64,000 nt of DNA from Longimicrobiales bacterium (GCA_965243805.1 OZ251577.1:839344-903343); one strand, 5' to 3'; counted from the first letter of the stretch, positions 16,231 to 61,741 are shown. Numbers and translations: made by a program. Notes: generated by a model from the letters alone, not told the origin.

Positions 16231-16285
16231 CAGCGGACGGGCACGGCGACGGCGGGGACACGCACGGTGACGGCGCGCCATCCCG

Positions 16286-41785: not shown

Positions 41786-43276
41786 ATGGCTGGATCGACA
41801 CGCAAGGGCAAGGGGGAGGGCAAGAGCGTCGCGGGCATCGAAGTCGCCAACTTCGGTCCAATTGTCGAGGCCGACGTGGACCTTCGGCCTCTCACGGTGT
41901 TCGTGGGTCCAAGCAACACGGGCAAGTCCTATTTGGCGATGTTGATCTACGCGCTCCACCGATTCGCAAGCGATCCGCTGTTCCATGGCTTCAGGCCCGC
42001 TCATCGCATGAAACTACTGCGGGACATTCCCGTGGAAGGTTTGGGTTCTGTACTGCGGGGCTGGCTGGAGGATGTATCTTTGGACGGTCGCCCCATGGTT
42101 GGACGCTTGCCAACGAGAGTATCGGCAGTTGTGCGCAGAGTACTCGCCGAGCCCGAACAGCTGGCGAACGCTCTGGGCGAGGGGATAGCGTCAAGTCTTG
42201 GATTTACCGATCTCGGCCACCTCGTCCGGCACGACGCGCAGGACTCGGCCACCGTGGCTTGGCGTGCCGGTGCCGCTGGCGGGCCTATGTCGAGATACAG
42301 CTACACGATCAAACGCCACGGCAAACCAACGCTTACCGGAGAAGTGCCCGCTACACTTGATCTACGAATCCCGTCGCCTCGCATCGGCAGATCGCTGTGG
42401 CTGCTGCGTCGGCATGCCGGTGCGGAGGAGTTGAGCGAATCCGATGTCCGTCGGATACTGGCCGACGTCGCCGATTTGGCCTTCTGTTCCACGGTTGGTC
42501 AGTTCAATCGGAGAGCACACTACTTACCGGCTGATCGCACGGGAATCATGCACGCTCACAGCATGGTGGTTCGCTCGCTGATTGGGCAGGCCTCACATGC
42601 CGGGATTCGCCGCCAAGTCGAAGTGCCTTTGTTGTCGGGCGTCTTGGCCGACTTCCTCGAGAACTTGATTGATCTGCCCAGCTCCAGATCGCAGTACGGA
42701 GAGCTCGTTGGAGTGATGGAATCCGATCTCTTGAGGGGATCGGTCGAAAGTAGGAAGTCCGACACTGGCTATCCTTTGTTCTCTTATCAGCCCAATGGCT
42801 GGGCGAACGGCCTCCCGCTGATGAATGCGTCGTCGATGGTGTCGGAACTTGCTCCGGTGGCACTGTACCTCCGCCACGTGGTCAAGCCGGGGGAGTTATT
42901 GATCATCGAGGAACCCGAGTCTCACTTGCATCCAGCCATGCAGGTTCGCCTTGCTCAATTCTTGGCCAGGGTTGCAAAACGCGGGCTACGGCTTCTGGTG
43001 ACGACACATAGCGAGATCTTCTTGGAGGCACTCAGCAACGTGATTGTCCTGGATGGCATCCCGGAGGCAGAACGAATCGGAATCTCAGGAAGCGATTCTA
43101 CCATACCGCAAGACGATGTGGGCGTTTGGCTGTTTGGTCGCGACGACGCTCGCGGATCGCACGTAAGAGAGATCGGACTGGATGTCGAGTCTGGAACGTT
43201 TCCCACGCAGTTCGAGCTAGTGAGCGAAGCCCTGTACTACGACTGGGCCAGAACCCTTGACCGGAGCAATGGATGA
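41786..43276 (+). CDS. OLD/AbiEii-like ABC-type ATPase (AAA_15/AAA_21 family), 496 aa, in a low-GC islet
   Basis: Walker A (FVGPSNTGKSYL), Walker B plus D-loop (LLIIEEPESHLHP) and H-loop (LLVTTHSEIF) are present. GC is about 10-12% below the flanks. The ATG lies only 4 nt after the peptidase stop. Confidence 0.7.
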   Translation: MAGSTRKGKGEGKSVAGIEVANFGPIVEADVDLRPLTVFVGPSNTGKSYLAMLIYALHRFASDPLFHGFRPAHRMKLLRDIPVEGLGSVLRGWLEDVSLDGRPMVGRLPTRVSAVVRRVLAEPEQLANALGEGIASSLGFTDLGHLVRHDAQDSATVAWRAGAAGGPMSRYSYTIKRHGKPTLTGEVPATLDLRIPSPRIGRSLWLLRRHAGAEELSESDVRRILADVADLAFCSTVGQFNRRAHYLPADRTGIMHAHSMVVRSLIGQASHAGIRRQVEVPLLSGVLADFLENLIDLPSSRSQYGELVGVMESDLLRGSVESRKSDTGYPLFSYQPNGWANGLPLMNASSMVSELAPVALYLRHVVKPGELLIIEEPESHLHPAMQVRLAQFLARVAKRGLRLLVTTHSEIFLEALSNVIVLDGIPEAERIGISGSDSTIPQDDVGVWLFGRDDARGSHVREIGLDVESGTFPTQFELVSEALYYDWARTLDRSNG

Positions 43277-43282
43277 ACGAAC

Positions 43283-43831
43283 ATGACTTCAGTTAGAAAT
43301 GCCATTTTGGCAAAGATTGAATCCCGTTGGCAGACGACCGAATCCCGTTGGCGGACCACAACATGCCAAAGCAATAACTGCTCGGTTGACATGGACAATG
43401 CCCCGGAACCGTTTGACATGATCAACCTCGATCGGATTGCGACAAGGGATCTGGAAGCCATGAGCGTCGATCGAAAGCGTTGCGACTACCTGTACTTGGG
43501 CACGGCGGACAACGGTGGTCACGTGGTGATCGCTCCTATTGAACTGAAGGGGGGCACCAACTTTCGGTCAGCCACTGTCGTACAGCAGTTGCAGACGGGA
43601 GCCGAGATAGCGGATGCCATCGTTCCGGCCGATGTGTCCTTCTCGTTTGTTCCCGTACTGGCTTCCCATAAGCCTCGGCGGCGTCATGTATGGCGGGGAC
43701 TGCGGACGCCAGTCATCTTCCGCAACAAGAGCCGTGCCATAACGACAATACAATGCGGCGAGCGGCTCACGACTGCGTTGGAGGCGGCCAGGACCAGGCG
43801 GGCCCCGGCCCCCGCGGTCGTCAGCTCGTAG
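43283..43831 (+). CDS. Hypothetical protein (182 aa), partner of the ATPase. No recognisable domain.
   Basis: It starts 7 nt after the ATPase stop and has the same low GC. It contains a tandem 21-bp duplication (ESRWQTT ESRWRTT). Confidence 0.4.
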   Translation: MTSVRNAILAKIESRWQTTESRWRTTTCQSNNCSVDMDNAPEPFDMINLDRIATRDLEAMSVDRKRCDYLYLGTADNGGHVVIAPIELKGGTNFRSATVVQQLQTGAEIADAIVPADVSFSFVPVLASHKPRRRHVWRGLRTPVIFRNKSRAITTIQCGERLTTALEAARTRRAPAPAVVSS

Positions 43832-43859: not shown

Positions 43860-45572
43860 TTAGCCCCCGTCCAGGACCTCATCCCGCACGCCTGTCATCT
43901 CCCAGCGGACCAGGGCGACGGGGATCACGCCGGAAGCGTAGAACGTGTCGAAGAAGCGTCGGAGTGTGAATGCGTCGCCCTCCTGAATCGCCCATTCGGC
44001 CATGAGCTGCTCGATCTCGATCTTGCCGGTTAGGTAGCTGGTGCCGTAACCGGGTTGTTGCAGGTAGAGGTGCTGTTCGTTGCGCACCAGCGCAGCGTCG
44101 GGGAGCCAGCCTCGGGGCGTCCAGCGAGTGGAGTGGGCGACGGCCTCTTCCATGTCGAAGACGTTGCCGTGCAGGTACAGCCCGCTCAACGCCCGAGCCG
44201 CGCGCTGGGCCAGCATGATCCACACCAACTCCCGCGACCGCGGCTTTCCGGCAAAGAGCCCGGCGTGCATCATCATCTCTTCCATCCCGGTGGCCAGCCC
44301 TTCGGAGCGCGCGTCCCAGATGTTGTAAAGCGACGGCACACGGCGCACGGCACTGGCATGGGGCACCTCGGCCAACGTGGCCAGTTCGATCCAGTGGTGC
44401 AGGTGGGTTCGCATCACCACCGGGTCCCGGTAGTTGACCTCGCTGAAGAAGTTGCGGATCTCGCCTGGGGCGGCGGGCGTGAAGACGCCGTTCTTGGCCC
44501 GCAGCGCCGGCGCCATGTATGCCTCGACAGTCTGGACTTGATGCTCCTCCAGGAAGCGCATGTACTCGTCCACAGCCTCGTTCAGCCGTTGGTCGTATTC
44601 CTCGGCGGTGGCGATTCGCTCCAGCAGCGGCAAGTCTCGGTTCCGGTGTTCCTCGAGCCGAAGCGAGGAATGGGCGCGGGCCAGCTCGCGTCGCATGAGA
44701 GTGACCTGCTCCTCCCAAGAGAACGGGACCAGGTGCACGTTCCGCATGTACCACGTGTAGTTGTCCCGTCCCACTCCCGACGGGCCCGTCTTGGAGTCCG
44801 CCAGCGCCTCGATCCAGTCGTGGAACTCCACCGTCGCTGTTCGGGCGGAAGCGATCGCCGCGTCCAGGGCGTCGCTGGTTCCCGCCACTTGCTCGGCCAG
44901 CGCGTCCAAGTCCGCGGCTTGGCGACGGAACGAACGCAGCCCGGCAACCCAGAGGTCGTGAGCGTCGCCGACAAGGTTCGCACGGGCTTGCTCCAACAGC
45001 ACTGGGACGGCACCAAGGCGGCCGGCCAGCTCGGCGGCGGCTTTGTCGGAGAGGGGATAGTCGTACTGCCAGAGGTCAATCCAGCCGTGTATGACGGGAC
45101 CTTCGTGGGCGGGCACGTCGCTCTCGGCGGCGAAGACCGTCACGTAGAACGCCGGGTTGCGCTCCCAGGGCCGCCGGATCCGGTGGTCGAAGTCGAGGCC
45201 GTTGATCTCCGCCCGCACCAAGTGCCAGTCGATCTGTCGAGCCACGGGCCAGCCGCTGGGGTTCAGCGCGTCCAGGCGCGCCCGCCAAGCTGGCAGGGCG
45301 TCGTACTGGGCGGCCATGGCGTCCGCAGAATAGTCGGGCACACCGCCGACGAACTCGGGGGACTCGAAGTCGCGCCACTCTGCGAAGAAGGCGGCCAAGC
45401 CGTCGGGGTCCGCGTCGGCGAGGGCTGGGTCCGCGTCGGCAAGGGCCTCGGACGTGGTGGCTACATCGGCGACGGCGGAGTCCACCGTGTCGCTGGGACC
45501 GCAAGCGGCCAGAAGCACGAGAACGAGGCCGAGGCAGCCACGAGATTCGGCTTTGGGTAGGGTCGAGATCAT
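43860..45572 (-). CDS. DUF885-like lipoprotein (570 aa)
   Basis: The lipobox is LVLLAAC. The length and motif distribution resemble the DUF885 family. The call is tentative. Confidence 0.45.
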   Translation of the reverse strand: MISTLPKAESRGCLGLVLVLLAACGPSDTVDSAVADVATTSEALADADPALADADPDGLAAFFAEWRDFESPEFVGGVPDYSADAMAAQYDALPAWRARLDALNPSGWPVARQIDWHLVRAEINGLDFDHRIRRPWERNPAFYVTVFAAESDVPAHEGPVIHGWIDLWQYDYPLSDKAAAELAGRLGAVPVLLEQARANLVGDAHDLWVAGLRSFRRQAADLDALAEQVAGTSDALDAAIASARTATVEFHDWIEALADSKTGPSGVGRDNYTWYMRNVHLVPFSWEEQVTLMRRELARAHSSLRLEEHRNRDLPLLERIATAEEYDQRLNEAVDEYMRFLEEHQVQTVEAYMAPALRAKNGVFTPAAPGEIRNFFSEVNYRDPVVMRTHLHHWIELATLAEVPHASAVRRVPSLYNIWDARSEGLATGMEEMMMHAGLFAGKPRSRELVWIMLAQRAARALSGLYLHGNVFDMEEAVAHSTRWTPRGWLPDAALVRNEQHLYLQQPGYGTSYLTGKIEIEQLMAEWAIQEGDAFTLRRFFDTFYASGVIPVALVRWEMTGVRDEVLDGG

Positions 45573-45624: not shown

Positions 45625-48600
45625 CTACATCCCGTGACTTGCGGCAGCGGGCGACTGCCGTGGGGCTGGAGGACCTCCTGGCGCCAAGCTGGCGACGGCG
45701 GGGACGCGCGGCAAGGTGGGAGCCGATCCCTCCGCAGCCGGTCCGTCCGCAGCCGATTCCTGCGCCTCGATCCCCAGCCAACAGATCAGTTCCACTTCGG
45801 CGGGCTCGATGACCGGCAGCACCGGAGGGGGTCGCAGGGGCTCGAGACCCGTATCCAAAACTTGGTCGATCAGATGTCGCGACAGAGCGGCTCCGCGACG
45901 CTGTTTGGGCGAGTTGGCGTCGGCCGAGGCGTCGAACCACTGCCGCAGCATCATCTCCTCGCGACGGGGCCAGGGAGACTCCAGCACCTCGAGGGCGCGT
46001 CGAACGCGGTCTTCGGAGACGCCGGGCGGCGGATTGTTTCGAATGAAGGCGGCCACGCGCCGGTTCAGCGGTCGCAATCTGGGCTGGAGGTTGGCAGGGT
46101 CGGTCTCGTGCATCCAGTGTTCCCAGATGTCTTGGCGAGCGACGGTCCAAAAGTCGTAGGCGCGCTCCTGTACGACCGCAGGGAACCAAGTCGGCGTGTC
46201 CTCTTCACACTCGATCAGGCGCAAGCAGGCCCCTACCTCGGACTGGACGGCCGCTGAACGGTCGGGCATCCAGTCGGCGTCCGCGGGGACAAAGCGCAGG
46301 TACGTTCGTTCGAGCTTGGTACCGTGCCCGACGACTGCGCAGAAAAAGAATCCTCGGCGCGCGCCCCGCTTCACCATCCCCGAGCCGGTCTTCCACGGCA
46401 TCTCCACGATGCGGTCACGTTCGGCTTGGAGCGCCTTGCGCAACGTCTGACGGTACTCCTCGCCAGTCTGGGCGGCTCCGGCTGTGCCTCCGCGCTCGAA
46501 GAAGGCGGCGTCCTCGTGCAGCAGCTTCTCGATCTCCTCCCGGGTCTCGGTGAAGACCTGGCTGCCGTGCGCCGCCCCTTCGATGGGAGCCGCCACGCCT
46601 ACGCTCGCCGCCGCCATCGCCAGCTTTGCGAGAATGCGCTGCTCCAGGTTGAGCAATCGGTCGAGTCTGTCCACGGGGAAGATCGTCCGAAGGAAAACGC
46701 GATGGTGCGGGCTGCCGATTCGGTCGATGCGGCCGTGGCGCTGGACAAGACGCATCGGGTTCCACGGCATGTCGAAGTTGACGATGTGGCGACATTGCTG
46801 AAGGTTGACGCCCTCCGCGAGCACATCGGTGGAGACCAGGAGGTCGAAACGGTCCGCCGCCTGCCCTGCCGTTGCGCCCATGGAGACGGGGGCAAAGCCC
46901 TGGACGGCCTTCAGGCGGGACTCGGTGCTGGTGCGGCCGGAGCCGGTCGCCGTGGCGACGCGCCCTCGGTACGGCTCAAGGCCCGGGTGCTGTTGCACGG
47001 CGTCGGCCAGGTAGTCGCGTATCCACTCCACCGTGTCGGCGTAAGACGAGAAGACCAGCACCTTTCGTTTCTGGCGTTCGTCGTGGGAGTGGGCGGCCTC
47101 ACGCTCCGCCTGTTCGGCGACCTGGGCCAGGGCGTCCGCCAGCGCCCCCAGCTTGGGGTCTCGGTCGGGAGTGATCTTGGCCGCGTCTTCGGCCAGCTCT
47201 CGGAGAAGATGGCGGTCCCGTTCCACGTGCTGCCGCAGCCGTGGTACATCGTACAGGTTTGCATCCGAGTAGAGCCGCTCGTCGGGGTCGTCGCCCGCAC
47301 TTGCCAGCATCTCTTCCATTCCGGCCTCGTCGTCCGCCGAGAGCTCGCTGAGGAAGGCGGTGGTCACCACATATCCGGCATCCAGAGCGTCCAGAAACAC
47401 GTCGTGCATGGCGGCCATGCGCTCGGTGGTTTTCCTGAACGCGTGCGCCGAGGACTCGAAGCGCTTCAGCAGGCCCGACCGCAACAGCCCCACCACGGCG
47501 CGTCCACGGGCGCGCTCCTCTGGATCGTCGACGCGAAGCAAGTAGGCGGCGGGTGTGTAGCGCGAAAACGTAATAGCATCATCGCTATCGGGGTCCAGCG
47601 CCGCCTCCAGCCGGTCGAAGAAGCCGGGCAAGCGTTGATCCAGCGCGTAGCGGACCGTCACTGCATGGGGCACGGGAAACTCGATGCGGCGAGGCTGGCC
47701 GTCGGGTCCCGGTATCGTGTCGCCGGCGTAGTGCTTGCGCACGAACTGGCGGGTGCGCTTGACCGTGGTGGCGTCGATGATCGGGTAAAGGAGGTCCGGG
47801 CTCAAGTTCGACGGGTCTTCGCGCATGGCGGCTTCGAAGCGGCCTCGGATCGAGAGGATTCCCTGGTCCGCCAGATGCGCGTCTTGGCGCAGGAAAAAGC
47901 GGATCAGGTGGTACAGGTCCCAAAGCGAGTTGTTGACCGGCGTGGCCGTGAGGAGCAGCAGGTCGCGGCGCCGGCCAAAGAGGAGGCGTCTCATCGTAGC
48001 CGCTCGCGTCGGCGCGCCCGGGTTTCGGTAGTTGTGGGCCTCGTCCACGATGACCAGCTGGTACTCGTCCAGCCCTCGCTGCAAGTGCTCTTTGCCGGGC
48101 CGGTCGGCGTCCGGCGGCAGCAGCTGCACATCGTTGGCCAGCTGCTCGTAGGACAGCGACTCTGCGAATATCTCGTACTCGACGAGGAACTTCTTCCAGG
48201 TCGTGTCGCGCAACGCGGCAGGGCAGATCAGCAGGACACGTTGCCGCCGGTCGCGATACAACTGCAGGATCTCGCCCGCGATGAACGTCTTGCCCAACCC
48301 TACTTCGTCGGCGACGATGGCACCGCCCGTCGCCTTGATCAGCCGCAGCGCTCGAGCCACGCCGTGCTTTTGGAAGCTGGTCAGCGGCAGGTTCTTGTCG
48401 TCCTCGGCGTCCTGGTCCACCTCGTCGCCGTACAGCTGCCAGAGGACGCGAAGAAACACCTCCCATGGCCTGCGCGGCAGCAGCAGCTCCTCAAAGATGT
48501 CGACCAGGTCGTAGGGTACGGCTTCGTCCCAGAGGTGGTCGAACCACCGCCTTGCGTGCTCCACGGTGGAGGTGTCGTCGCGGCCGAGACTGAGTTCGAG

Positions 48601-49170
48601 GTTCGTGGTCAGGCCAGCGGCGGTGAGGTTGGAGGAGCCAGCAAGCACGCCTTCGGTGGCCTCGCCGGTCAGGACGTACGCCTTTGCGTGAAGGAACGCT
48701 TTCTCGTACCGACGAACCTCAATGTTCCCCGACCGCAACGCCTTGACCAGCATGGCCAAGTTAGATCGCCCGGCGTACGTAAACGGCAGGCGGTCGCGCT
48801 CTCGCCGAAGCTCTGTCGTCATGTGGGACAGGCACTCGCCGACGCAGCGCCGGTCGAAGTCGTCCTTCGGCTCGCCCAGCCGCCTTTGGCAAGGCGACAG
48901 GCCTTGGGCTGCCAAGTCGGCACCCAGAAGAAGGCGAACCATGGGGACTGTGGCCAGCCCGTCCGCGATCTGCGCGAACCCCGCCGGGCTGAAGTAGGCG
49001 GTGGCGATCCGCGCCTCGCTGGGCGGGCTTGTGGAAGGTTCGTCCGTGGATGCCGAGCCCGCCACGTTCAGCAACGAGCCAAGCGCCTGCGCGAGGGTGT
49101 TGCCGTGCCGGTTGTCTACAAAGCTCGGGAATGGTGGCGGGCCGACTGGTAGCCCATCAGTGCAATCCAT
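45625..49170 (-). CDS. Fusion of a phospholipase-D-like (HKD) nuclease domain and an SNF2-family helicase (about 1181 aa; start could instead be 49230)
   Basis: The N-terminal HKD motif is FLHAKAYVLTG...GSSNLTAAGL. The SNF2 motifs are I (IVADEVGLGKTF), II (VIVDEAHNYRN), III (LLLTATPVNN) and IV-VI (...LLVSTDVLAEGVNLQ...QRHGRIDRIG). The start overlaps the ImmA-like gene. Confidence 0.75.
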   Translation of the reverse strand: MDCTDGLPVGPPPFPSFVDNRHGNTLAQALGSLLNVAGSASTDEPSTSPPSEARIATAYFSPAGFAQIADGLATVPMVRLLLGADLAAQGLSPCQRRLGEPKDDFDRRCVGECLSHMTTELRRERDRLPFTYAGRSNLAMLVKALRSGNIEVRRYEKAFLHAKAYVLTGEATEGVLAGSSNLTAAGLTTNLELSLGRDDTSTVEHARRWFDHLWDEAVPYDLVDIFEELLLPRRPWEVFLRVLWQLYGDEVDQDAEDDKNLPLTSFQKHGVARALRLIKATGGAIVADEVGLGKTFIAGEILQLYRDRRQRVLLICPAALRDTTWKKFLVEYEIFAESLSYEQLANDVQLLPPDADRPGKEHLQRGLDEYQLVIVDEAHNYRNPGAPTRAATMRRLLFGRRRDLLLLTATPVNNSLWDLYHLIRFFLRQDAHLADQGILSIRGRFEAAMREDPSNLSPDLLYPIIDATTVKRTRQFVRKHYAGDTIPGPDGQPRRIEFPVPHAVTVRYALDQRLPGFFDRLEAALDPDSDDAITFSRYTPAAYLLRVDDPEERARGRAVVGLLRSGLLKRFESSAHAFRKTTERMAAMHDVFLDALDAGYVVTTAFLSELSADDEAGMEEMLASAGDDPDERLYSDANLYDVPRLRQHVERDRHLLRELAEDAAKITPDRDPKLGALADALAQVAEQAEREAAHSHDERQKRKVLVFSSYADTVEWIRDYLADAVQQHPGLEPYRGRVATATGSGRTSTESRLKAVQGFAPVSMGATAGQAADRFDLLVSTDVLAEGVNLQQCRHIVNFDMPWNPMRLVQRHGRIDRIGSPHHRVFLRTIFPVDRLDRLLNLEQRILAKLAMAAASVGVAAPIEGAAHGSQVFTETREEIEKLLHEDAAFFERGGTAGAAQTGEEYRQTLRKALQAERDRIVEMPWKTGSGMVKRGARRGFFFCAVVGHGTKLERTYLRFVPADADWMPDRSAAVQSEVGACLRLIECEEDTPTWFPAVVQERAYDFWTVARQDIWEHWMHETDPANLQPRLRPLNRRVAAFIRNNPPPGVSEDRVRRALEVLESPWPRREEMMLRQWFDASADANSPKQRRGAALSRHLIDQVLDTGLEPLRPPPVLPVIEPAEVELICWLGIEAQESAADGPAAEGSAPTLPRVPAVASLAPGGPPAPRQSPAAASHGM

Positions 49171-50335
49171 GGTACGTCTTGATCTTGTCGAATGTCGCCT
49201 TCTTCTTGATGGCCAGTAGATGGTACGCATCCATCGGCAGGGTCTGTAGCGACAGCGTGTGTGCGATCAAGTTACGCGAAAACCGTTCTCCGGTTCGAAC
49301 CATCTGCGTGCGCAAGAAGTTGCCTCCTGAACTCGGACGGGTGGATGCCATACGCTTTCGTTCGTTGTCGTAAGCGTCTTTGAATCTCTGGTGCGACAAG
49401 TATCCGGCGTCGCGAAGCCGTCGAAGAACGACCAGCGAGCTGACCTTGAAGTGGGTCGCCAGGCGTTGCAGAGTGCGCCTCAGCTTTTCGCCGTCGCGGT
49501 ACTGACTGCGCAAAGCGTCCAAGGGAACCAGCAGTTCGGCCGCCACTTGATTGCACCACTGCTCGGTCCGATGGCCCTCCAAGGACGCGAGTGTGGTGTT
49601 CGACAGTCCCGAGTTTCCCAGCCAAATGTGGGCCAACTCGTGTGCCAGAGTGAACATCTGGGCCGCCTTTGCGTCGGCGCCGTTCACGAAGACGAGGGGT
49701 GCTAGATCATCCGAGAGGGCGAATCCTCGGAATTCGTCGGGATCCAGCACGCGGGATGTGTTGTTTCCCACCACGCCGCTGATCATGACCAGCACGCCCT
49801 TGGCGTCGGCGCGGTCCGCAAAGCGACGAACAGCCAACGTCCAGTTAGGGACGTCGCTCCGGTCCCGGACCCGAAAATCCAAGGTGGATGACATGTTCCG
49901 GGCCACCTGGGCCGGATCGTCGCCCAGGCTGGCCGAGCCCACGAATTCAACGGGATCGTGTTCCTCCTCCACGGCATACTCGTGGTACCAGTCCTGACGC
50001 CGCTGGCACAGGTAGACGGTGTCCACTAGGTGTGCACTCGGCCTGCGGGGCTGCTTGCCAGTCGTGGTGCGGAAGTCGGCTATGCCCAGATCGTCGGTCA
50101 GGGGTCCGCCCGAGAAGAGCGCTCCGAACGGCGTGTAGGTCGCCTTAGCGAAGAGCTGGAGCTGCCGATAGGTAGGCTTGGTCGTGCCAGCCTCCCATTC
50201 GCGGTACTTGGGGAAGCGTCGCTCGAGCGTCTCCACATCTTTCCCCGAGCGTTCCTGCGCCCACCGGAGCGTCGCAGGATTCACAGACACCCGGTAGGGG
50301 CCACGCTGAGGTTGTGGGCTGGATGGAGTCGTCAT
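49157..50335 (-). CDS. Fused XRE-family HTH plus ImmA/IrrE-type zinc metallopeptidase regulator (392 aa)
   Basis: The N-terminal HTH_XRE is ...LRWAQERSGKDVETLERRF.... The HEXXH zinc motif is HELAHIWLGN, in a DUF955/ImmA-like context. Confidence 0.7.
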   Translation of the reverse strand: MTTPSSPQPQRGPYRVSVNPATLRWAQERSGKDVETLERRFPKYREWEAGTTKPTYRQLQLFAKATYTPFGALFSGGPLTDDLGIADFRTTTGKQPRRPSAHLVDTVYLCQRRQDWYHEYAVEEEHDPVEFVGSASLGDDPAQVARNMSSTLDFRVRDRSDVPNWTLAVRRFADRADAKGVLVMISGVVGNNTSRVLDPDEFRGFALSDDLAPLVFVNGADAKAAQMFTLAHELAHIWLGNSGLSNTTLASLEGHRTEQWCNQVAAELLVPLDALRSQYRDGEKLRRTLQRLATHFKVSSLVVLRRLRDAGYLSHQRFKDAYDNERKRMASTRPSSGGNFLRTQMVRTGERFSRNLIAHTLSLQTLPMDAYHLLAIKKKATFDKIKTYHGLH

Positions 50336-50372
50336 GCGGGAACACTCCCGGACGGATCGGCTGGGTCGACCT

Positions 50373-51140
50373 TCAAGGTAACCGATTGGGGGAACTGCGG
50401 AAGTGCTTCAGGACGGCATCCATTTGACTGTGGTAGTCCCAGCCCTCGTTGAAGGTCTCGAAGATGTGGACCAGTTGGCGTTCGGCAAGACCGTAGCAGT
50501 GCGCGACAAGGGCGTCGAGTTGGTGGATCAGGTCCTCTTTCTCGTCGTCGGCGAGCGGCCCCCACTCCACGCCGACGGCCTCCGCCCATTCGGCGAAGCG
50601 CTCGTCCGGGCACGCGAGACGACCCGCTATCTCCACGATGCGTTTCCACAGGGGGTCGTGGCGGCTGAGGCGGGGGATGGGGAAGGGATTGATGACGAAG
50701 TATGTGACATGTGTTTCGACAAATCGGCGAGCATACCAGTCCAAGGGAATCGAGCACAGGACGCCCAACAGGAAGGCTTGATCCTTCTCGTCGCCACGAG
50801 GCCAGAGGAAGTAGGGCGCATTGTGCACGACGAACACCCTTGGCGGCAAGAGGCAGGCGATGATGGTTCGCTTGTCCGTTGCACGTGCCACGTCGCGAAA
50901 CGCGATCCGAGGCTTGAAGCATGGTAACGTAGATTGGTCCTGAAGGATGCCTATCGGGAACTCTTTGTGTGCGCTGTCGCGCCGGCTCCTCGCCGCCCTA
51001 ATCCGCTTGCTCTGCAGCCAGTCGAGTACCGGGCTTGGGTTGGCCCAGGCGTAGGGCGGACCCTTGTTGGGATCCCATAGATCGAACGACGCGCCCTTGT
51101 ACACGGGCCAGTAACCGTCTTCGCGCTCGAAGCTCATCAT
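50373..51140 (-). CDS. Hypothetical protein (255 aa) between the methyltransferase and the ImmA-like regulator, in lower-GC DNA. It may become a C-terminal extension of the methyltransferase if the C26 tract changes length.
   Basis: Its ATG overlaps the methyltransferase stop (ATGATGA). Its reading frame is open upstream all the way to the poly-C tract. Confidence 0.45.
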   Translation of the reverse strand: MMSFEREDGYWPVYKGASFDLWDPNKGPPYAWANPSPVLDWLQSKRIRAARSRRDSAHKEFPIGILQDQSTLPCFKPRIAFRDVARATDKRTIIACLLPPRVFVVHNAPYFLWPRGDEKDQAFLLGVLCSIPLDWYARRFVETHVTYFVINPFPIPRLSRHDPLWKRIVEIAGRLACPDERFAEWAEAVGVEWGPLADDEKEDLIHQLDALVAHCYGLAERQLVHIFETFNEGWDYHSQMDAVLKHFRSSPNRLP

Positions 51141-54100
51141 TGGCTTCTGCGCCGTCGCGTGGAGGTCTGTGATCGGCCTTGCACGCCAGCCGACGGCTTG
51201 TCGAACACCATGAAGTGCTTCTGTGCTGTGGCGTCCATCTCGCGGTCTGGGCGTGCACGCCAGTTGCCTCCTCCCCCCCCCCCCCCCCCCCCCCCCCCAT
51301 TTATAATTGTGTCCTCAAATGTGTCAAGACGAGGTGCTTTGGACAGCTGGGCGAACACATCTACCGATTCGTCGCCGGGCAACAAGGGGAGCGACGCCGA
51401 GTCGTTCCACTGTTCAATGTCTTGCCGATAGAACACCAAGGGCTCATTGACCACGCCAGCGCGGAAGGCGGAATGGTCTGGATAGGGGCCGCGCATTCGC
51501 AACTGAGATCCTAATTCGTCTCCTCGGCGGGCTATCGCCACAAGCACAATCGTGTACTGAGGGGTGACACTCTCGAACACCCATCCCGCCCGATTTTTCA
51601 GAGCAACCGCATCCATACTGCTCGCCTCGCCAAACACCGCCTTCCGAAACTCCTGCGATCCTTTGGCCTGCAACGCACTCCTGGGCAGTACGACGCCAAT
51701 CCGTCCGCCCTGCTTTGCGGCCAGCCGCCAGAAGCGCCAGCAGAACGCCTTGTACACATCGGCGTCGCCGGTTCCCATGCCGGGGAAATCCCCTCCCAGC
51801 AACGCTCGTCGCACGTCGTCGTTTTCCCGCACCTCTTCTCGCAAGGCCACAACCAAGTCGGGGCGCTCCTGACGGAACCGCGCCTTCTCGGCCTCCTGGT
51901 GGCGCTGGGACATGCCGCGCAAACCGGGAAAGTGCCGCGCCCAGAAGCCGTGTTCCTCCACCTTGGGCTTCTTCCACGGCGGGTTGCCCAGGATCACGTC
52001 GAAGCCGGAGCGTTCGCGCAAAAAGACCTCCGGGAATGCTACCGGGAAGTGCAGCACGGCAAGGCCGGACAGCTCTTGCGCCGCCACAGCGTCGGGCATC
52101 TCCCCCTCTGCCAAGCCATCGCTGCGGGAATCCCAGTCCTGGAACTGGAAATCCTTGACCAATGTCCTGTCCGAGATCGGCCGGGCGGTGATCAGGTCGC
52201 ACAGCGCCTTGGTGGCCGCAACCGCTTCTTCCGCCTCCTGTTGGGCCTGCCGTGCTTGGCGCACCTCGGCCACCGTGGCGTCGTTCAAGTTGGCCAGCCG
52301 ACGCAGCGGCTTGGCGGCCTTGCCCAGCAGGGATTCGGCGTCGCATCGGAACAGCGGCGTATTGACGGCTTCAAGCTTGGCCTTGATGTCGTCAATAGTT
52401 CCGATGCCGACCAGCGAGTTCCCGCGAACCAAGTTGTGGTCCAGAAATGAAAGCGGGAGACCAGGCACGAACGTGTGAATCCACACGGCCAAACGAGCCA
52501 GCTGGACCGAAATGTCGTTCAGGTCCACGCCGTAGATGCACCGTCGCGCGATCATCCGACGCAGCAGTTGACCGTCCTCAATGGAAAATGCGCTAGCCGC
52601 GTCGCCGCCCAAATGGGTTCGCGCGGCTCGACGAAGCTCGGCCAGCTTGTTGCGCACGCGCGGCAAGTCGCGACCGACCAGAAAGTCGGCCATTCCCTTC
52701 TCGATTCGGTCGATGGCACCGACCAGGAAGTGGCCCGAGCCCATGGCGATGTCAGCCACCCGGAAGTCGAAGAACCTCTCGGCGGCGGTGGCGTCGTCCA
52801 TGGAGTCCAAGCGCTCGAAATGGTCTTTCAGCGCGGGTTCAAGCGCCTTGTCCAGCAGGTGCCCCACGGCGAACGGCTTGGTGTAGTAGCTGCCCGTGAA
52901 CTTGCGAACTCCAGAGCGGTTGTGCAGGTAGGTCTCCCCTTCGGAGACGACGACTCGCGCCTTCGGCTTGGCTGGCACGTAGGTTCCCTTGCTGTCCACG
53001 GCCAAGTCCGTGTTCGCCACGGCAAGTTCGGACTCAAGCAGGCCCTCGTAGATCGTGCCGAACTCTCTCACACGCAGCGACCGGAAGTCCACGGGTCCCG
53101 GTCCGCCTTCGGGCGTCTCAATGACCAAGAGATGACGCAGGGCGACCTCAAAGACTTCGTTGGGCAACGAGACGCGGGCCAACTCAGCGCCGGTCTCCGA
53201 CACCTTCGGGTCGTTGCTGAACAATCCGCCGTCGTACTCGGGCACGCCCCACTCCGAGTTGCCGACCGCCACTGCCTCGCACAAGCGGGCCACCTCCTGC
53301 CAGTGGGCGTCGCCTGGGGCCACGGGCGTGTTCTCGGTCGCCTGTTTGACCAGCTCCTGCGCCTTCTGCTTGAGCGAACGGCGACGGTAGGCGTCGTTGG
53401 TGCGGTAGGGCAACAGGTCGCAGTCCTCAGCGTACGCTATGAAGAGGAGGCGGAACAGCACCGTCATGGCCATGTCGTAGGTGCGAGCCAACTCCGGCGC
53501 GGTCAGCGACTCGATGCCTCTTGCGTCGGCGATGCCCTGTGCGAGCCTTGGGACGACTTGGTCGTAGATGCGCTCGCGGAGACGTTCGGCCAAGTTGCCG
53601 GCAAAACGACGGGAATCATCCAGGATTTTGTCCAGGCTGCCCTCCGGCGCCAGCGCTTCGGCGGAGAAGATCAGCCACAGGTACGCCAAGTCGGGATCGG
53701 TCAGCAGCGGAGTTTGGCACTCCACGTAGGTCTCGGTGCGGCCGCGCCTGCCGACGCCCCGGTCGGTGGCGGTCGAGTAGAGGCGCAACCGGTTGCCTTG
53801 GACCATCAACACCCAGGACAGGTTTTCGTCGTCGGCCTTCTTGAGCGCGTAGGTGACCGGCGACAGGCTGTTGAAGCGAGGGTTGCCGGCTTCCGCCGAC
53901 TCGTGGTCGTGCAGCAGGACGGCGAGGGCGGTGCGTCGCTGGCCGCCATCCCCGCTCAGGAGAAGGCGGGTCAGATTGTCCAGCGGGGCAACGCGAAAGC
54001 CCAGGGCACCCAGCATCTCGATTGCGCGGGTGCCGATTGCCTTCTGGGCCTTGCGACCGGCGGCGATCCAGTCGGGTCGCTGCCGAACCGCCGTCACGAG

Positions 54101-54646
54101 GTTATGGATGGCCAGCAGCCCCTCGTTGCGGATGCCCGGCAGATCGGTCTCCAGCGACGGCAGGGCTTGGGAGAGAAACTGAAGCGCCGAGTGGCGGTCC
54201 GGCTGCACCAAGGCTTCCCGGCAGATTCGTTCGACCCGCTCGGTGTCCAGGCCAGTCCAGACTGCGGGCTTCTCTCCTGTGGGACCGCAGAGCGCCGCGC
54301 CTTCGGGGTGAAGCACGGCCAGGAGCACCGGGGCCGCACGACCGGCTCGACGGTCCTGGTGAGCGGCGGCCATGGCGAGCCGGGACGGAGTGCGGTCGGC
54401 ACGGGCAACCACAACCTCCAGGCCATGGTCGCCTTCGCCTACGAAGAGGCCGGCGGGCTGGAAGCCGAACCGCGGGCTGGGCGACCAGGGGCGGGGAACT
54501 AGTTCGGGAAGGAAGTCCAAGGATCGTCGGGCAAGCGGCCCGCCCGATCTGGCGAGTCCGGCTTGTGGGCGAAAAAACGGGGGGGGGGGGGGGGGAGCAT
54601 AGAGCGACGCTCGAACAGGCGCAAATGCAGGGGCTGTCAGGCACAC
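51137..54646 (-). CDS. Large N6-adenine DNA methyltransferase of the PglX / DrmMI / Eco57I-like (type IIG-related) family, 1169 aa, with homopolymer tracts near both ends
   Basis: The SAM motif I is DIAMGSGHFLVGA and catalytic motif IV is VILGNPPWKKPK. A G17 run at codons 18-23 gives a Pro run, and a C26 run near the 3' end gives a Gly12 run. Confidence 0.75.
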   Translation of the reverse strand: MCLTAPAFAPVRASLYAPPPPPPFFRPQAGLARSGGPLARRSLDFLPELVPRPWSPSPRFGFQPAGLFVGEGDHGLEVVVARADRTPSRLAMAAAHQDRRAGRAAPVLLAVLHPEGAALCGPTGEKPAVWTGLDTERVERICREALVQPDRHSALQFLSQALPSLETDLPGIRNEGLLAIHNLVTAVRQRPDWIAAGRKAQKAIGTRAIEMLGALGFRVAPLDNLTRLLLSGDGGQRRTALAVLLHDHESAEAGNPRFNSLSPVTYALKKADDENLSWVLMVQGNRLRLYSTATDRGVGRRGRTETYVECQTPLLTDPDLAYLWLIFSAEALAPEGSLDKILDDSRRFAGNLAERLRERIYDQVVPRLAQGIADARGIESLTAPELARTYDMAMTVLFRLLFIAYAEDCDLLPYRTNDAYRRRSLKQKAQELVKQATENTPVAPGDAHWQEVARLCEAVAVGNSEWGVPEYDGGLFSNDPKVSETGAELARVSLPNEVFEVALRHLLVIETPEGGPGPVDFRSLRVREFGTIYEGLLESELAVANTDLAVDSKGTYVPAKPKARVVVSEGETYLHNRSGVRKFTGSYYTKPFAVGHLLDKALEPALKDHFERLDSMDDATAAERFFDFRVADIAMGSGHFLVGAIDRIEKGMADFLVGRDLPRVRNKLAELRRAARTHLGGDAASAFSIEDGQLLRRMIARRCIYGVDLNDISVQLARLAVWIHTFVPGLPLSFLDHNLVRGNSLVGIGTIDDIKAKLEAVNTPLFRCDAESLLGKAAKPLRRLANLNDATVAEVRQARQAQQEAEEAVAATKALCDLITARPISDRTLVKDFQFQDWDSRSDGLAEGEMPDAVAAQELSGLAVLHFPVAFPEVFLRERSGFDVILGNPPWKKPKVEEHGFWARHFPGLRGMSQRHQEAEKARFRQERPDLVVALREEVRENDDVRRALLGGDFPGMGTGDADVYKAFCWRFWRLAAKQGGRIGVVLPRSALQAKGSQEFRKAVFGEASSMDAVALKNRAGWVFESVTPQYTIVLVAIARRGDELGSQLRMRGPYPDHSAFRAGVVNEPLVFYRQDIEQWNDSASLPLLPGDESVDVFAQLSKAPRLDTFEDTIINGGGGGGGGGGGNWRARPDREMDATAQKHFMVFDKPSAGVQGRSQTSTRRRRSQ
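51273..51298. repeat. Homopolymeric tract of about 26 C (plus strand) inside the 3' end of the methyltransferase gene
   Basis: Read directly from the sequence. It is a simple-sequence contingency-locus candidate. Confidence 0.9.
54579..54595. repeat. Homopolymeric tract of about 17 G (plus strand; a C-run on the coding strand) 50 nt into the methyltransferase ORF
   Basis: Read directly from the sequence, preceded by an A6 run. Confidence 0.9.
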
Positions 54647-54784
54647 CGCTAGGGACTGTGCTGCCGCTCCAGCTCGGAGAGTCCGACAGCAGTTACGCCC
54701 TGGCCCAGCGACAGTCGCCCCACGCCCGAATGCACGCCGTATCCGTGGCCAGCCCTCTGCCGGCGAGCAGGCTCCTCGGGCGAG

Positions 54785-55489
54785 TCACCGGACGCCGATC
54801 ATTTGCCGCTTGGGCGTGACGATCGCGAGCTTCGGACTCACCCGCGTGCCGCTGTGGTGCTTGCGGTGCGCCGCCTCAAAGACGAGCTCCCGGCCACCTT
54901 CTAGCTTCGCGCGCAACTGCGGGCGCGTGCGGGCTTTGTTCCACAATGGACACGTGGCCTTGCCCAGTCGCCCGAGCTCTGTGCCTTCGACCCGGAAGCC
55001 GGTGTGCTGGTCATAGCGCACCACGAGAAAGCAGAATTTTCTCGCGCCCAACTGCGCGCCGAGCCGATCCAGCCACTGATCGTATTCGCTCACGACAGCG
55101 GCTACGGCCTGCTGCGGCTTGTCTCCGCGCCGGATCTCGTCCAGGTGCGAAGGGAAGCGCAGCGGGTAGCGTTGCGTAGCCCGGTTCCCCTTGTACATCC
55201 TGATCTTCACGCCGATGTCGCCGATCAGGAAGTTCACGTGGGTGCGCCACAGCGACACGAACCGGATCTCCGGCGATGCCGCCACGATCCAGTCCACGAG
55301 ATGCCGTTTCGTCAGATCGCCCTTGTGGTTGCTTGCGGCCAGGATGTGCTCCGAAGACTCGGAAAGCGCATCCTGTACGACCTGCACCACATCGGCGACG
55401 CCGCGCTCGGGCTGCGGGATGTCCGCCCCGAAGTATCTCGCGAGCTCCTCGCGACATATCTGTCGGATGCGGGCTTCGGTGATGTTCAT
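54785..55489 (-). CDS. Hypothetical protein (about 234 aa) immediately upstream of the methyltransferase operon. Function unknown.
   Basis: The start is set at an internal ATG (MNITEARIRQICREEL). I found no recognisable motifs. GC is lower than the background. Confidence 0.35.
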   Translation of the reverse strand: MNITEARIRQICREELARYFGADIPQPERGVADVVQVVQDALSESSEHILAASNHKGDLTKRHLVDWIVAASPEIRFVSLWRTHVNFLIGDIGVKIRMYKGNRATQRYPLRFPSHLDEIRRGDKPQQAVAAVVSEYDQWLDRLGAQLGARKFCFLVVRYDQHTGFRVEGTELGRLGKATCPLWNKARTRPQLRAKLEGGRELVFEAAHRKHHSGTRVSPKLAIVTPKRQMIGVR

Positions 55490-55972
55490 GCAGACCTCCT
55501 CCCTGTGGGGTTTGGTGCCGCTCTGCCCCACTGAGCGCGCACGTACAGTGTCGAACCTTGTCAATAGTCGGAGCCTCAAGCTTGAGCAAGTTCGACCCGT
55601 CCGACCCGCCGGGGGAAGATATCAACTCAACTTCCCCGACAGGTCAGCCAGCGGCGAGCGTGGGTTCGATGGCGCGGCAAACGTAGCTGGACATGGCAGA
55701 AGTAAGTAAGTGAACAAGAGAGAGGTGTGTGCAGATTGGCATTCAGAATGCAAATGTACCGCCACTGCCTAGCCACTTCAGAAGCTCTCGACGCCCCACT
55801 GGGTCCAGCCACTTCGCGGGCACTCGAAGCCACCAGGGTAGGACAGCGACTCCCGCACTGACTTGACATACCGTCAACCTTACGTGCCAATTAGCCTAGC
55901 CTAGCCCCGACAACCTCAGCCCGGCCGCAACAACGGCCGGCAGGAACGACTACCCCCGTTGCACCAGCAGCT

Positions 55973-57616
55973 ATGACGATCCATCAGCTCCTCGGCACCG
56001 GCACCGACCGCGCCCTTTCGGCACCCGGCCGACGCGACTGCACCTACGACGCTCTCCGCACTCACGTGGAGCGCACGGTGGCAGCGCTGAACGCACGGGG
56101 AGTAGGGCGAGGAGATCGGGTGGCGATCGTCCTTCCCAACGGGCCGGAGATGGCCAGCGCCTTTGTGGCAATCGGGTCCGGGGCGGTGACCGCGCCTCTC
56201 AACCCCCGCTACACGGAACGCGAGTTCGCCTTCTACCTGTCGGACCTGGGAGCACGGGCGCTGGTGGTGGCAGAGGGCGACCCTTTGCCCGCACGGCACG
56301 CCGCCGACCGTTTGGAGGTGCCCGTGCTGGAGGTGCGCTTCGACCCCGACGGGCCTGCCGGCACCTTCGACTTCGCCACCCCGCCCGACGACGGACAACG
56401 CCCGCCCGCCCGTCCAGGCATGGCTTCGCCCGACGACACGGCGCTCGTGCTCCACACCTCGGGCACCACTTCGCGGCCGAAGATCGTCCCCCTCCTCCAC
56501 CGGAACGTGTGCGCCACGGCCCACAACATTCGGGAGACCCTTGCGCTGTCGTCGGAGGACGGCTGCCTCAACGTCATGCCGCTCTTCCACATCCACGGCC
56601 TCATGGCGTGCGTACTGGCAACGCTGGGCGCAGGCGGGAGCGTGTACTGCACCCCCGGCTTCAACGCGCTGAAGTTCTTCGGCTGGCTGGACGACTGCGT
56701 CCCGACGTGGTATTCCGCGGTCCCGACGATGCACCAAGCGATCCTGGCCCGGGCCGTGCGCAACGCCGAGACCGTCGAGCGGGCCAAGCTGCGGTTCATT
56801 CGCTCGTCGTCGGCGTCCCTGCCCGCACGGGTAATGGCGGAGCTGGAGGAGACGTTCGGCGCGCCCGTCGTGGAGGCGTACGCCATGACCGAAGCCGCTC
56901 ATCAGATGACGTGCAACCCCTTGCCTCCAGCGCGCCGCAAGCCGGGAACGGTCGGCCCGGCGGCGGGTCCCCAAGTCTCGGTCATGGACCAGGACGGCAC
57001 CCACCTCAAGCCCGGCGAGGAGGGCGAGATCGTCATTCGGGGACCCAACGTCACCCCAGGCTACGAGAACAACCCGGCTGCCAATGCGGCGGCGTTCACC
57101 CACGGCTGGTTCCGCACCGGCGACCAGGGCTTCCGAGACGGGGACGGCTACTTCACGATCACGGGCCGTCTCAAGGAGATCATCAACCGAGGCGGCGAGA
57201 AGGTCTCTCCCCGGGAAGTGGACGAAGCACTGATGGACCATCCGGCCGTGCAGCAGGTGGTCACCTTCGCGATGCCCCACCCGAAGCTGGGCGAGGAAGT
57301 GGCCGCCGCCGTGGTGCTGCGGGACGAAGCCGGCTCGCAGACCGACGACGCTGGCTCGCAAAGCGACGAAGCCGGCTCGCAGACCGACGCCCAAGTCGCC
57401 GCCGACATCCGGAGCTTCGCTGCCTCTCGCTTGGCGGGCTTCAAGGTGCCGCGCACGGTGGTGGTCCTGGACGAAATCCCCAAGGGGCCCACTGGCAAGC
57501 TGCGGCGGATCGGACTGGCAGAGCAGCTGGGGCTTGGAGGCGCGGAAGCGGGTGCGGAAGCGGGTGCGGGAGCGCGTGCCGCCGAAGGGCGTGGCGTGGC
57601 AACCCGATCCCCGTGA
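55973..57616 (+). CDS. AMP-dependent acyl-CoA synthetase / ligase (547 aa) with an internal EAGSQTD-like tandem repeat
   Basis: The AMP-binding motif is LHTSGTTSRPK, and ...GWFRTGDQG... and ...PKGPTGKLRR are also present. A 21-bp unit repeated three times sits in a surface-loop region. Confidence 0.8.
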   Translation: MTIHQLLGTGTDRALSAPGRRDCTYDALRTHVERTVAALNARGVGRGDRVAIVLPNGPEMASAFVAIGSGAVTAPLNPRYTEREFAFYLSDLGARALVVAEGDPLPARHAADRLEVPVLEVRFDPDGPAGTFDFATPPDDGQRPPARPGMASPDDTALVLHTSGTTSRPKIVPLLHRNVCATAHNIRETLALSSEDGCLNVMPLFHIHGLMACVLATLGAGGSVYCTPGFNALKFFGWLDDCVPTWYSAVPTMHQAILARAVRNAETVERAKLRFIRSSSASLPARVMAELEETFGAPVVEAYAMTEAAHQMTCNPLPPARRKPGTVGPAAGPQVSVMDQDGTHLKPGEEGEIVIRGPNVTPGYENNPAANAAAFTHGWFRTGDQGFRDGDGYFTITGRLKEIINRGGEKVSPREVDEALMDHPAVQQVVTFAMPHPKLGEEVAAAVVLRDEAGSQTDDAGSQSDEAGSQTDAQVAADIRSFAASRLAGFKVPRTVVVLDEIPKGPTGKLRRIGLAEQLGLGGAEAGAEAGAGARAAEGRGVATRSP

Positions 57617-61717: not shown

Positions 61718-61741
61718 CGAGAATCTGTCGAACGGGGCCCC

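Follow-up and report, generated by a model that had tools for sequence, protein, structure and literature searches.

The stretch of DNA considered here, called the window below, comprises 64,000 nucleotides (nt) of a Longimicrobiales bacterium (GCA_965243805.1 OZ251577.1:839344-903343), and its subject of interest is a minus-strand operon that encodes a large adenine methyltransferase, the target-recognition domain (TRD) belonging to it, and a nuclease-helicase fusion. On the coding strand, from 5' to 3', the operon consists of a methyltransferase N-fragment of 1169 amino acids (aa; 51137-54646, the maximal open reading frame (ORF), whose true start is uncertain), a 255-aa ORF (50373-51140), a 392-aa metallopeptidase of the M78 (ImmA/IrrE) type (49157-50335) and a maximal ORF of 1201 aa (45625-49230). 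These are the four minus-strand ORFs listed in a preliminary description of the locus, and its assignment of the first as a gamma-class N6-adenine methyltransferase is borne out by the Pfam Eco57I match (1.8e-12) and the DIAMGSGHFL and GNPPW motifs. The fusion of an XRE-type helix-turn-helix (HTH) domain to an ImmA-type peptidase was recovered in its peptidase half (Pfam Peptidase_M78, 1.1e-15, with the HELAH motif) but not in its HTH half, the first 110 residues giving no Pfam match at E<=1. The fusion of a phospholipase D (PLD) nuclease with an SNF2 helicase is real (PLDc_2, SNF2-rel_dom and Helicase_C), although the HKD motif, described as perfect, has Thr in place of the canonical Asp. Among the families proposed in that description, Eco57I, SNF2, PLDc_2 and Peptidase_M78 were thus matched in the Pfam and PADLOC scans and HTH was not. 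A dip in GC content also exists, but it amounts to 4-8 points (0.61-0.63 at 49-53 kb versus about 0.66-0.70 in the flanks) rather than the 8-12% reported. The unusual feature of the locus, absent from the earlier reading, is a repeat tract combined with a cassette of segments that lie in more than one reading frame. A promoter and terminator scan of 45-56 kb returned nothing.

The 255-aa ORF, previously taken for an unknown protein, is the TRD of the methyltransferase, severed from it by a frameshift just after a run of 26 G residues, because the two split ORFs match a single PADLOC model end to end and the predicted structure of the TRD matches methyltransferase chains. The model in question, REase_MTase_IIG (PDLC03620), has 1378 positions, of which 30-1096 are covered by the 1169-aa ORF (775 bits, 2.6e-233) and 1132-1370 by the 255-aa ORF (2.3e-63), so that the two jointly span positions 30-1370. 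The AlphaFold model of the TRD, made from the 273 residues encoded by 50373-51194, has a predicted local distance difference test score (pLDDT) of 92 and a predicted template-modeling score (pTM) of 0.90, and Foldseek aligned it with chains of M.BseCI, CamA, MmeI and BrxX/PglX with a probability of 1.0 (0.99 for one PglX chain), E values of 5e-5 to 5e-3 and template-modeling (TM) scores of about 0.5. The matched regions are, we assume, the C-terminal DNA-recognition domains of these enzymes, and a TRD fold is thereby supported by the predicted structure. At E<=1e-20, 1266 homologues of the methyltransferase were found, mostly single chains of ~1345 aa that contain the TRD, and stand-alone ORFs of ~255 aa elsewhere make up >80 protein clusters. 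With a gamma-class methyltransferase core and a C-terminal TRD occurring in one protein family, the enzyme can be assigned to a type IIG-like family. The N-fragment itself consists of an N-terminal region of ~560 aa, the gamma-class N6-adenine methyltransferase core, a middle region, a poly-Gly stretch and the first of the segment copies discussed below. Residues 36-582 have no Pfam family match at E<=1, a D...(D/E)xK triad was not seen among the invariant columns of the N-terminal region, and a sequence search of the PDB with the methyltransferase matched nothing. At the 3' end of the N-fragment, the stop codon TGA (51139-51137) overlaps the ATG of the TRD ORF (51140-51138) in an ATGA arrangement (51137-51140) directly followed by a second TGA, which suggests termination-reinitiation coupling of the two ORFs.

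The junction of the methyltransferase and the TRD is marked by the G26 homopolymer on the coding strand (51273-51298, minus strand), which is read as poly-Gly. A second homopolymer of the coding strand, C17 (54579-54595, minus strand), is located at the 5' end of the methyltransferase gene, 59 nt upstream of the codons for the conserved N-terminal ‘FLPEL’ (F codon 54514-54512); immediately 5' of it stands an ATG (54600-54598) that in the window is out of frame with the gene. The two tracts are the sole G or C runs of at least 7 nt in the 64-kb window, the number of G12 matches expected by chance is 0.13, and the positions of both, within the coding region or at its 5' end, are those of the simple-sequence repeats of phase-variable loci. 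Orthologous junction tracts of G9-G32 are present in 12 related loci and one of G24 in a thirteenth (L092). Across 222 kb of tract-bearing loci, all 15 G or C runs of at least 9 nt fall at these two sites, 12 at the junction and 3 at the 5' end of the methyltransferase gene. The 5' site holds C17 and C23 in L081 and C9-TCA-C6 in L092, and in both of these relatives the upstream ATG is in frame. An assembly artifact as the source of the poly-G was rejected, since 13 independent assemblies have the tract at the orthologous codon, with coding sequence on either side of it, and the frame logic described next is conserved.

Downstream (3') of the G tract, the first element of the TRD is encoded twice, in two different frames. 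Copy 1 (51200-51262, minus strand), a segment of type D with the sequence WRARPDREMDATAQKHFMVFD, is in the window in frame with the upstream methyltransferase; copy 2 (51126-51188, minus strand), of type H and with the sequence WRARPITDLHATAQKPMMSFE, shares the TRD frame and follows copy 1 at a distance of 74 nt, hence at an offset of 3n+2. Copy 2 becomes part of the protein only if the tract length sets the upstream gene in the TRD frame, and three states can be distinguished accordingly. In state A, the one found in the window, copy 1 is read in the frame of the upstream gene, which ends at the TGA overlapping the ATG of the TRD, so that the enzyme is split; in state B the upstream gene is in the frame of copy 2 and the proteins are fused, with lengths of about 1370-1415 aa; in state C neither copy is in frame. 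The same layout is found in the 12 related loci (L016 and L081-L091), which come from independent assemblies and show 60-93% protein identity, and the relative frame offset of the two copies is constant in all 13 loci, with a spacing of 74 or 77 nt. These 13 loci, the window among them, divide into eight in state A, four in state B and one in state C. The 120 best protein clusters fall into the same three classes, about eight of the proteins ending exactly at the Gly run, where assemblies would be expected to break. A scan of the Joint Genome Institute (JGI) metagenomes with a DNA pattern for the tract plus copy 1 yielded one further locus, L084.

The pattern of substitutions bears on whether both copies are translated. 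For copy 1, the ratio of non-synonymous to synonymous polymorphism (pN/pS) in the 13 loci is 0.19 in its own frame and 1.5-1.9 in the other two; for copy 2, considered over the 15 codons upstream of the internal ATG, the values are 0.175 and 1.7-2.4, respectively. In addition, 12 of the 13 loci share WRARPDREMDAT unchanged, although many synonymous differences separate them at the DNA level, and the remaining locus has WRVRPDREMDAT. Because purifying selection acts on each copy in its own frame only and WRARPDREMDAT is invariant, both reading frames of the cassette appear to be used. In the TRD model, copy 2 corresponds to residues 3-23, and the pLDDT, averaged over blocks of ten residues, rises from 68 (residues 1-10) to 94 (11-20) and 97 (21-30). 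The segments can be sorted into the types D (DRE[ML]DAT), H (ELHAT) and Q (QGD[LM]NAT), which differ at a D, H or N residue beside the invariant AT.QK.

Three segment copies, rather than two, occupy the same junction in four loci of Acidimicrobiia, two of them in Ca. Poriferisocius (L036 and L037) and one each in Ca. Aldehydirespirator (L049) and Ca. Poriferisodalis (L079). The copies belong to the types Q (WRFRPVQGDLNAT), H (..AELHAT) and D (..REFDAT) and occupy three successive frames, with a stop after each, and the preceding repeat is (TC)n in L036 and L037, G12 in L049 and C23 in L079. Here, too, pN/pS is low in the own frame of each copy (0.17-0.32) in comparison with the other frames (0.8-2.9). 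The TRD is a separate ORF in all four loci, and since it is never fused there, the split enzyme must work; and because every frame gives an in-frame segment, the repeat is not a plain on/off switch in these loci. L036 (13676-15217) and L049 (13766-15335) each contain two tandem TRD ORFs, with further G12-G15 tracts in or after them (at 14287 in L036 and at 14379 and 15355 in L049), and L049 additionally carries a (TC)33 repeat further upstream inside the methyltransferase gene, which suggests several stacked repeat switches together with alternative TRD modules.

Variation in tract length is also seen between near-identical sequences. Over 4.8 kb, the ENA metagenome scaffold L092, which stems from the project that also supplied L081, shows 98.07% identity to the window. 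At the junction the window reads G26 and then AGGAGG, but L092 has a G24 run that borders immediately on CAACTGG, and its protein (P0244, 1406 aa) is consequently fused (state B). Another protein, P0248, is fused as well. The window and L092 thus differ by a frame-changing length polymorphism between close relatives, which is the pattern expected of a contingency locus, with the reservation that an assembled homopolymer may be wrong by a base.

The second conserved protein of the operon is the HKD (PLD-family) nuclease fused to an SNF2 helicase (45625-49170, minus strand), the start of which is probably the ATG at 49170 (MDCTDGLPVG...; 1181 aa) and not 49230. In the numbering of the 1201-aa ORF, HxK...GSSN is found at residue 181, GLGKT at 311 and DEAH at 396, the last two being intact; the ~350 C-terminal residues have no family match (Pfam, E<=1). 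PADLOC matches it with the models ‘HKD+Snf2’ (PDLC01075, 2e-52) and DrmD (3e-41). Each protein has a single HKD copy, and the position held by Thr in place of Asp is variable across the family. One HKD motif per chain implies dimerization, as in Nuc and BfiI.

Relatives of the methyltransferase in species-representative genomes number 587 and are spread over many bacterial phyla (among them Proteobacteria, Planctomycetota, Acidobacteriota, Gemmatimonadota, Chloroflexota and Actinomycetota) and archaea; cultured Actinomycetota carriers include Nocardioides, Microbacterium, Nonomuraea, Nocardiopsis and Mycobacterium. Among the 64 loci that have at least 6 kb of sequence downstream, 60 encode an HKD-SNF2 homologue downstream on the same strand, within 600 nt in 39 cases. 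The co-occurrence that the preliminary description proposed to look for therefore holds for this pair and not for the four-gene block, the M78 gene being present in a minority of loci, and the conserved unit is one of two genes, the type IIG-like methyltransferase of ~1345 aa and HKD-SNF2. In the tract-bearing locus L086 (13885-18600), the HKD-SNF2 gene is broken by a DDE_Tnp_1 transposase gene (15930-17090) next to intact methyltransferase and TRD ORFs, which looks like a natural inactivation of the putative restriction arm. The parts themselves are already on record: the PADLOC models REase_MTase_IIG and HKD+Snf2 match both core proteins, and fusions of HKD domains to SWI2/SNF2 ATPases in bacterial restriction-modification (R-M) contexts are mentioned in a passage of PMC3417536 that cites Iyer et al. 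2006. Such earlier reports of HKD-SNF2 proteins are observational, and the domain fusion is the same as that in the window. A named or tested system pairing this methyltransferase family with HKD-SNF2 was not found in the literature searched, and absence there is not proof.

The observed anatomy, the two-gene linkage, the selection on both frames and the tract polymorphism in near-identical sequences make it probable that the locus is a two-gene R-M-like module whose methylase is switched by the repeat among split, fused and off states. The methyltransferase with its TRD would recognize a specific DNA motif and methylate host DNA, while HKD-SNF2, an ATP-dependent translocase and nuclease, would act as the restriction arm on unmethylated DNA, a role proposed because of the conserved linkage and the analogy to the Res subunits of type I and type III systems and to DrmD/DrmC. 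Slipped-strand mispairing would change the length of the G tract at high frequency. In state A, with the upstream gene in the frame of copy 1 and then stopped at TGA, the product would be a two-polypeptide enzyme, the 255-aa TRD being made by termination-reinitiation at ATGA and binding to the N-fragment, and the N-terminal strand missing from the 255-aa TRD fragment would probably be contributed in trans by copy 1. In state B, translation in the frame of copy 2 would yield one fused protein of ~1400 aa, and state C, with neither copy in frame, would be off. Should the ATG preceding the C17 tract be where translation truly begins, this second tract would switch translation on and off independently of the first.

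States A and B, and likewise the Q, H and D states of the three-copy loci, would on this model all be active and functionally different. They most likely differ in their target specificity or in how methylation is coupled to restriction, a view favored because the segment types are distinct and conserved, because these types differ at the D/H/N residue beside the invariant AT.QK, and because the remainder of the TRD does not exceed the catalytic domain in variability (69% mean pairwise identity for either). The fuller version of this proposal is plausible but tentative, and we would not yet put it forward as the expected outcome: one repeat may select among alternative segments (D, H and Q) and between a fused and a separate TRD, thereby switching specificity or the restriction-modification balance among two or three heritable, reversible states, without recombinases or extra TRD genes.

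Several points weigh against these proposals. The tract lengths were read from assemblies, in which long homopolymers are error-prone, so that single state calls may be off by one, and the length variation is that seen between assemblies of relatives. The pN/pS values were pooled over non-independent pairs, from 13 loci for the two-copy and from four for the three-copy version. The restriction role of HKD-SNF2 is argued from linkage and analogy, and an HKD motif that lacks the canonical Asp does not speak for it. For the 1169-aa N-fragment, the predicted structure is confident over residues 45-165, but with an overall pLDDT of 57 it was too poor for the N-terminal region to be classified, and the Foldseek matches bearing on a nuclease domain within the methyltransferase itself, which are to Hjc-type resolvases, are weak (E 0.06). 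Finally, activity of the split enzyme, coupled translation of the TRD and an effect of the segment on specificity are deduced from sequence, and contact of the segment with DNA is a conjecture of the same kind.

The alternative that survives best is ordinary on/off phase variation, in which state B alone would be functional, the window would be an OFF allele, and copy 1 and the 255-aa ORF would be by-products. The position of the G tract between the methyltransferase and the TRD, exactly as in cj0031, agrees with this, as does the fact that relatives without a tract are always fused (~1345 aa). It is nevertheless unlikely, as the protein encoded by copy 1 is nearly invariant and under constraint in frame A only, state A is the commonest assembled state, and the three-copy loci keep all copies and the TRD ORF intact although they have no fused state. 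A second alternative is a frameshift buffer, in which the repeat would encode a flexible linker of inevitably slippery DNA, the duplicated segments would keep the enzyme working and all states would be equivalent. An in-frame segment in every frame, hence no off state, in the three-copy loci and a TRD that varies no more than the catalytic domain fit such a buffer, but the two-copy version still has an off frame, and the copies have not been homogenized: the D, H and Q identities are kept across lineages and each type also occurs singly in family members without a tract. Furthermore, about 70 of the 120 best clusters have no repeat, and because most relatives do without it, the repeat is not structurally required. 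Buffering is accordingly rated a quite unlikely explanation.

The frame changes might alternatively be produced by transcriptional or ribosomal slippage on the G run, with all products present in every cell, as for dnaX, and nothing inherited. A polymerase could in principle slip on runs of 9-32 G. For the repeats of a mod gene, leaky expression that depends on the frame is on record (bioRxiv 10.64898/2026.04.01.715767). The assembled tract lengths, however, differ among close relatives and fall in all three frames, so variation at the DNA level exists, and Rfam gave no element, including no frameshift element, for 45-56 kb. Slippage as the whole explanation is therefore improbable, but slippage of this kind and DNA-level variation are not mutually exclusive. 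The weakest alternative, the four-component BREX/DISARM-like system of the preliminary description with the unknown ORF and the XRE-ImmA protein as integral parts, has in its favor the tight packing and co-orientation of the ORFs and the partial DrmMI (methyltransferase) and DrmD (SNF2) matches, but it is highly improbable, as the core consists of two genes, the ‘unknown ORF’ is the methyltransferase's own TRD split off at the homopolymer, and the M78 gene, which most loci lack, is accessory and, as part of an M78-DUF4411 cassette, shares its slot with other defense cargo.

The M78 protein matches the PADLOC models CapP (2e-14) and RmrA (3e-11) over its M78 domain. An M78 gene is present in 5 of 80 genome loci, with DUF4411 next to it wherever the flank was scanned, and in 9 of the 12 tract-bearing loci, where DUF4411 is always next. 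The window is syntenic with L081, with flanks 96% identical, and exactly the 498-nt DUF4411 gene of L081 is missing from it (deletion junction 49148-49149, minus strand), the in-frame ATG at 49170 being kept for the SNF2 gene. DUF4411, which matched no PADLOC model, is a putative toxin of small size and PIN-like (PMC5499597). The M78 gene is optional, is normally paired with DUF4411 and has lost this partner by deletion in the window; the most fitting interpretation is therefore that it is left over from an embedded cassette of a toxin-antitoxin-like or RosmerTA-like kind. The likeness to RosmerTA lies in the matches of the 392-aa protein to the RmrA (M78) and CapP-type models, but the window has no adjacent toxin gene and an HTH was not detected; membership in a RosmerTA-like cassette was rejected on these grounds, the adjacent DUF4411 gene being deleted and PADLOC having no model for DUF4411. 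In other loci (L008, L054, L080, L005 and L012), the slot between the methyltransferase/TRD and HKD-SNF2 holds other defense genes; its contents include SIR2 with HerA in L008, GmrSD in L054, an AAA_15/21 ATPase in L080 and M78 with DUF4411 elsewhere, and the slot behaves as an embedding hotspot.

The surroundings of the operon are variable as well, an island of about 41.8-55.9 kb lying between conserved flanks. Directly upstream of the methyltransferase, a 234-aa ORF (54785-55489, minus strand) is an ORFan, with a self-match only among 5.8 billion protein clusters and nothing useful from Pfam at E<=1; the same position in the syntenic loci L081 and L092 is held by an AAA_14/DUF4143 gene (PADLOC PDC-S01, 9e-116 in L081), so this site is also variable. 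The DUF885 gene (570 aa; 43860-45572, minus strand) directly downstream of HKD-SNF2 is probably unrelated to the system, because it is kept in L081 and not in the other loci. Further along, an AAA_15/AAA_21 ATPase gene (41786-43276, plus strand; PADLOC PD-T4-4_A 8e-31, PDC-M47A 3e-26) and a 182-aa ORF (43283-43831, plus strand; weak PDC-M47B match, E 0.008) look like a second, separate candidate defense pair, situated where the GC content of the window is lowest (0.59). Identity to L081 is only 87% across the ATPase region, versus 96-97% in the flanks, and L081 lacks the 182-aa ORF. On the other side of the operon, a 492-aa minus-strand ORF (55916-57394) without a family match is probably spurious, the real gene there being, to judge from the synteny with L081, that of a plus-strand AMP-binding enzyme (547 aa, 55973-57616), after which comes an ApbA-like gene. 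Finally, 58700-61645 and 61736-64000 (both plus strand) are tandem paralogous genes for proteins of about 980-1010 aa, about 80% identical in DNA, whose counterparts in L081 have no Pfam match.

If this reading is adopted, a truncated methyltransferase and a 255-aa hypothetical protein of the kind found in the >80 clusters, a pattern frequent in metagenome annotation, are one enzyme in one switch state, which annotators and defense finders would otherwise score as a pseudogene or as an extra component. A widespread two-gene R-M-like module is thereby defined, which is unnamed as far as the literature was searched and looks like a minimal relative of the accessory part of class 1 DISARM. If the proposed switching is true, the cassette would give environmental bacteria, which are far removed from the host-adapted pathogens in which phasevarions are known, a compact, recombinase-free means of diversifying their epigenetic or restriction specificity, and it would be a clear natural case of selection keeping overlapping alternative frames behind a mutable repeat.

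Among known systems, the preliminary description was right that the locus is neither canonical BREX nor canonical DISARM and that PglZ, BrxC, DrmA and DrmB have no match among the operon ORFs and their immediate neighbors, nor among the Pfam-annotated neighbors of 13 related loci; its reading of a DNA-modification-based, defense-type operon is likewise supported. For BREX, PglZ was without a match among the nine ORFs scanned (Pfam, PADLOC) as well as among those neighbors, and no BrxC match was obtained when BrxC/PglY was looked for with PADLOC. An assignment of the methyltransferase to BREX PglX was rejected, with NCBIfam scores of 17-21 bits against cut-offs of 400-900 and a PADLOC PglX match of 3e-5 against 2.6e-233 for REase_MTase_IIG. 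Class 1 DISARM consists of DrmMI, DrmD, DrmA, DrmB and DrmC, with DrmA and DrmB (DUF1998) as the defining core. The methyltransferase shares with it a DrmMI-like catalytic region (PADLOC 5e-67), but the SNF2 protein DrmD and the PLD protein DrmC are separate there, whereas both activities are fused in the partner encoded in the window. Neither DUF1998 nor a separate DrmA gene was found in the window operon or the related loci, and the matches of the SNF2 protein to DrmA and DrmD were dismissed because they are partial and confined to the helicase core, the NCBIfam DrmD score being 171 bits where the cut-off is 610. Type III Mod/Res and type ISP systems resemble the module in pairing a methyltransferase and TRD with a superfamily 2 (SF2) ATPase and nuclease, and phase-variable mod genes are common in type III; the window differs in its gamma-class Eco57I-like methyltransferase with a large N-terminal region, its SNF2 motor and its HKD rather than PD-(D/E)xK nuclease, and membership in either type is not claimed. 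HKD-SNF2 weakly matches the PDB chain 7clg_A, named ‘Putative helicase’ by its depositors and presumably SauUSI, an enzyme with a PLD plus helicase architecture like that of the partner; SauUSI, however, is a single-protein, modification-dependent enzyme. The Hma system (HmaA-HmaB-HmaC) comprises an SNF2 helicase with a C-terminal PD-(D/E)xK nuclease, a methylase and an ATPase (PMC11232893), and was rejected because HmaA matches the helicase core only (7e-28), the nuclease in the window is an N-terminal HKD and a third, ATPase gene is missing. The BREX-related ‘BR’ systems were rejected too, being centered on DUF499 with TUDOR-SNF2 helicases (PMC12839542).

The closest parallels to the switch are found among phase-variable methyltransferases. 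In Campylobacter jejuni, the type IIG gene cj0031/32 is split by a G9 tract (PMC4889913), and pglX of Streptomyces coelicolor owes its phase variation to a G tract, according to a statement in PMC4365076 that cites Sumby & Smith 2003. As in the window, a poly-G lies in the gene of a large Eco57I/PglX-like adenine methyltransferase and its length splits or restores the frame; unlike the window, both cases are described as binary on/off switches without duplicated out-of-frame segments, and Pgl in addition requires PglW, PglY and PglZ, none of which is encoded in the window operon. Phase-variable type IIG enzymes are thus known, and in the literature searched no description was found of out-of-frame paralogous segment copies behind a repeat, so that the multi-frame cassette appears to be undescribed. 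In the type IIG enzymes of Helicobacter pylori JHP1272 (Hpy99XIV) and HP1353-HP1354 (HpyAXVI), one homopolymer acts as an on/off switch and a second changes specificity (Krebes et al. 2014, PMC3936762), and, as in the window, two homopolymer tracts are found in a type IIG-family methyltransferase gene. The second tract of H. pylori decides on the addition of a C-terminal TRD-like piece and alters the methylated motif, whereas in the family described here, characterized at the sequence level, the tract lies between the catalytic part and the whole TRD. The family of the window further differs from the H. pylori enzymes in its two or three out-of-frame copies of the first TRD element, its split state and its separate HKD-SNF2 partner, and what is new with respect to all of these systems is that segment copies placed behind the repeat render two or three frames productive.

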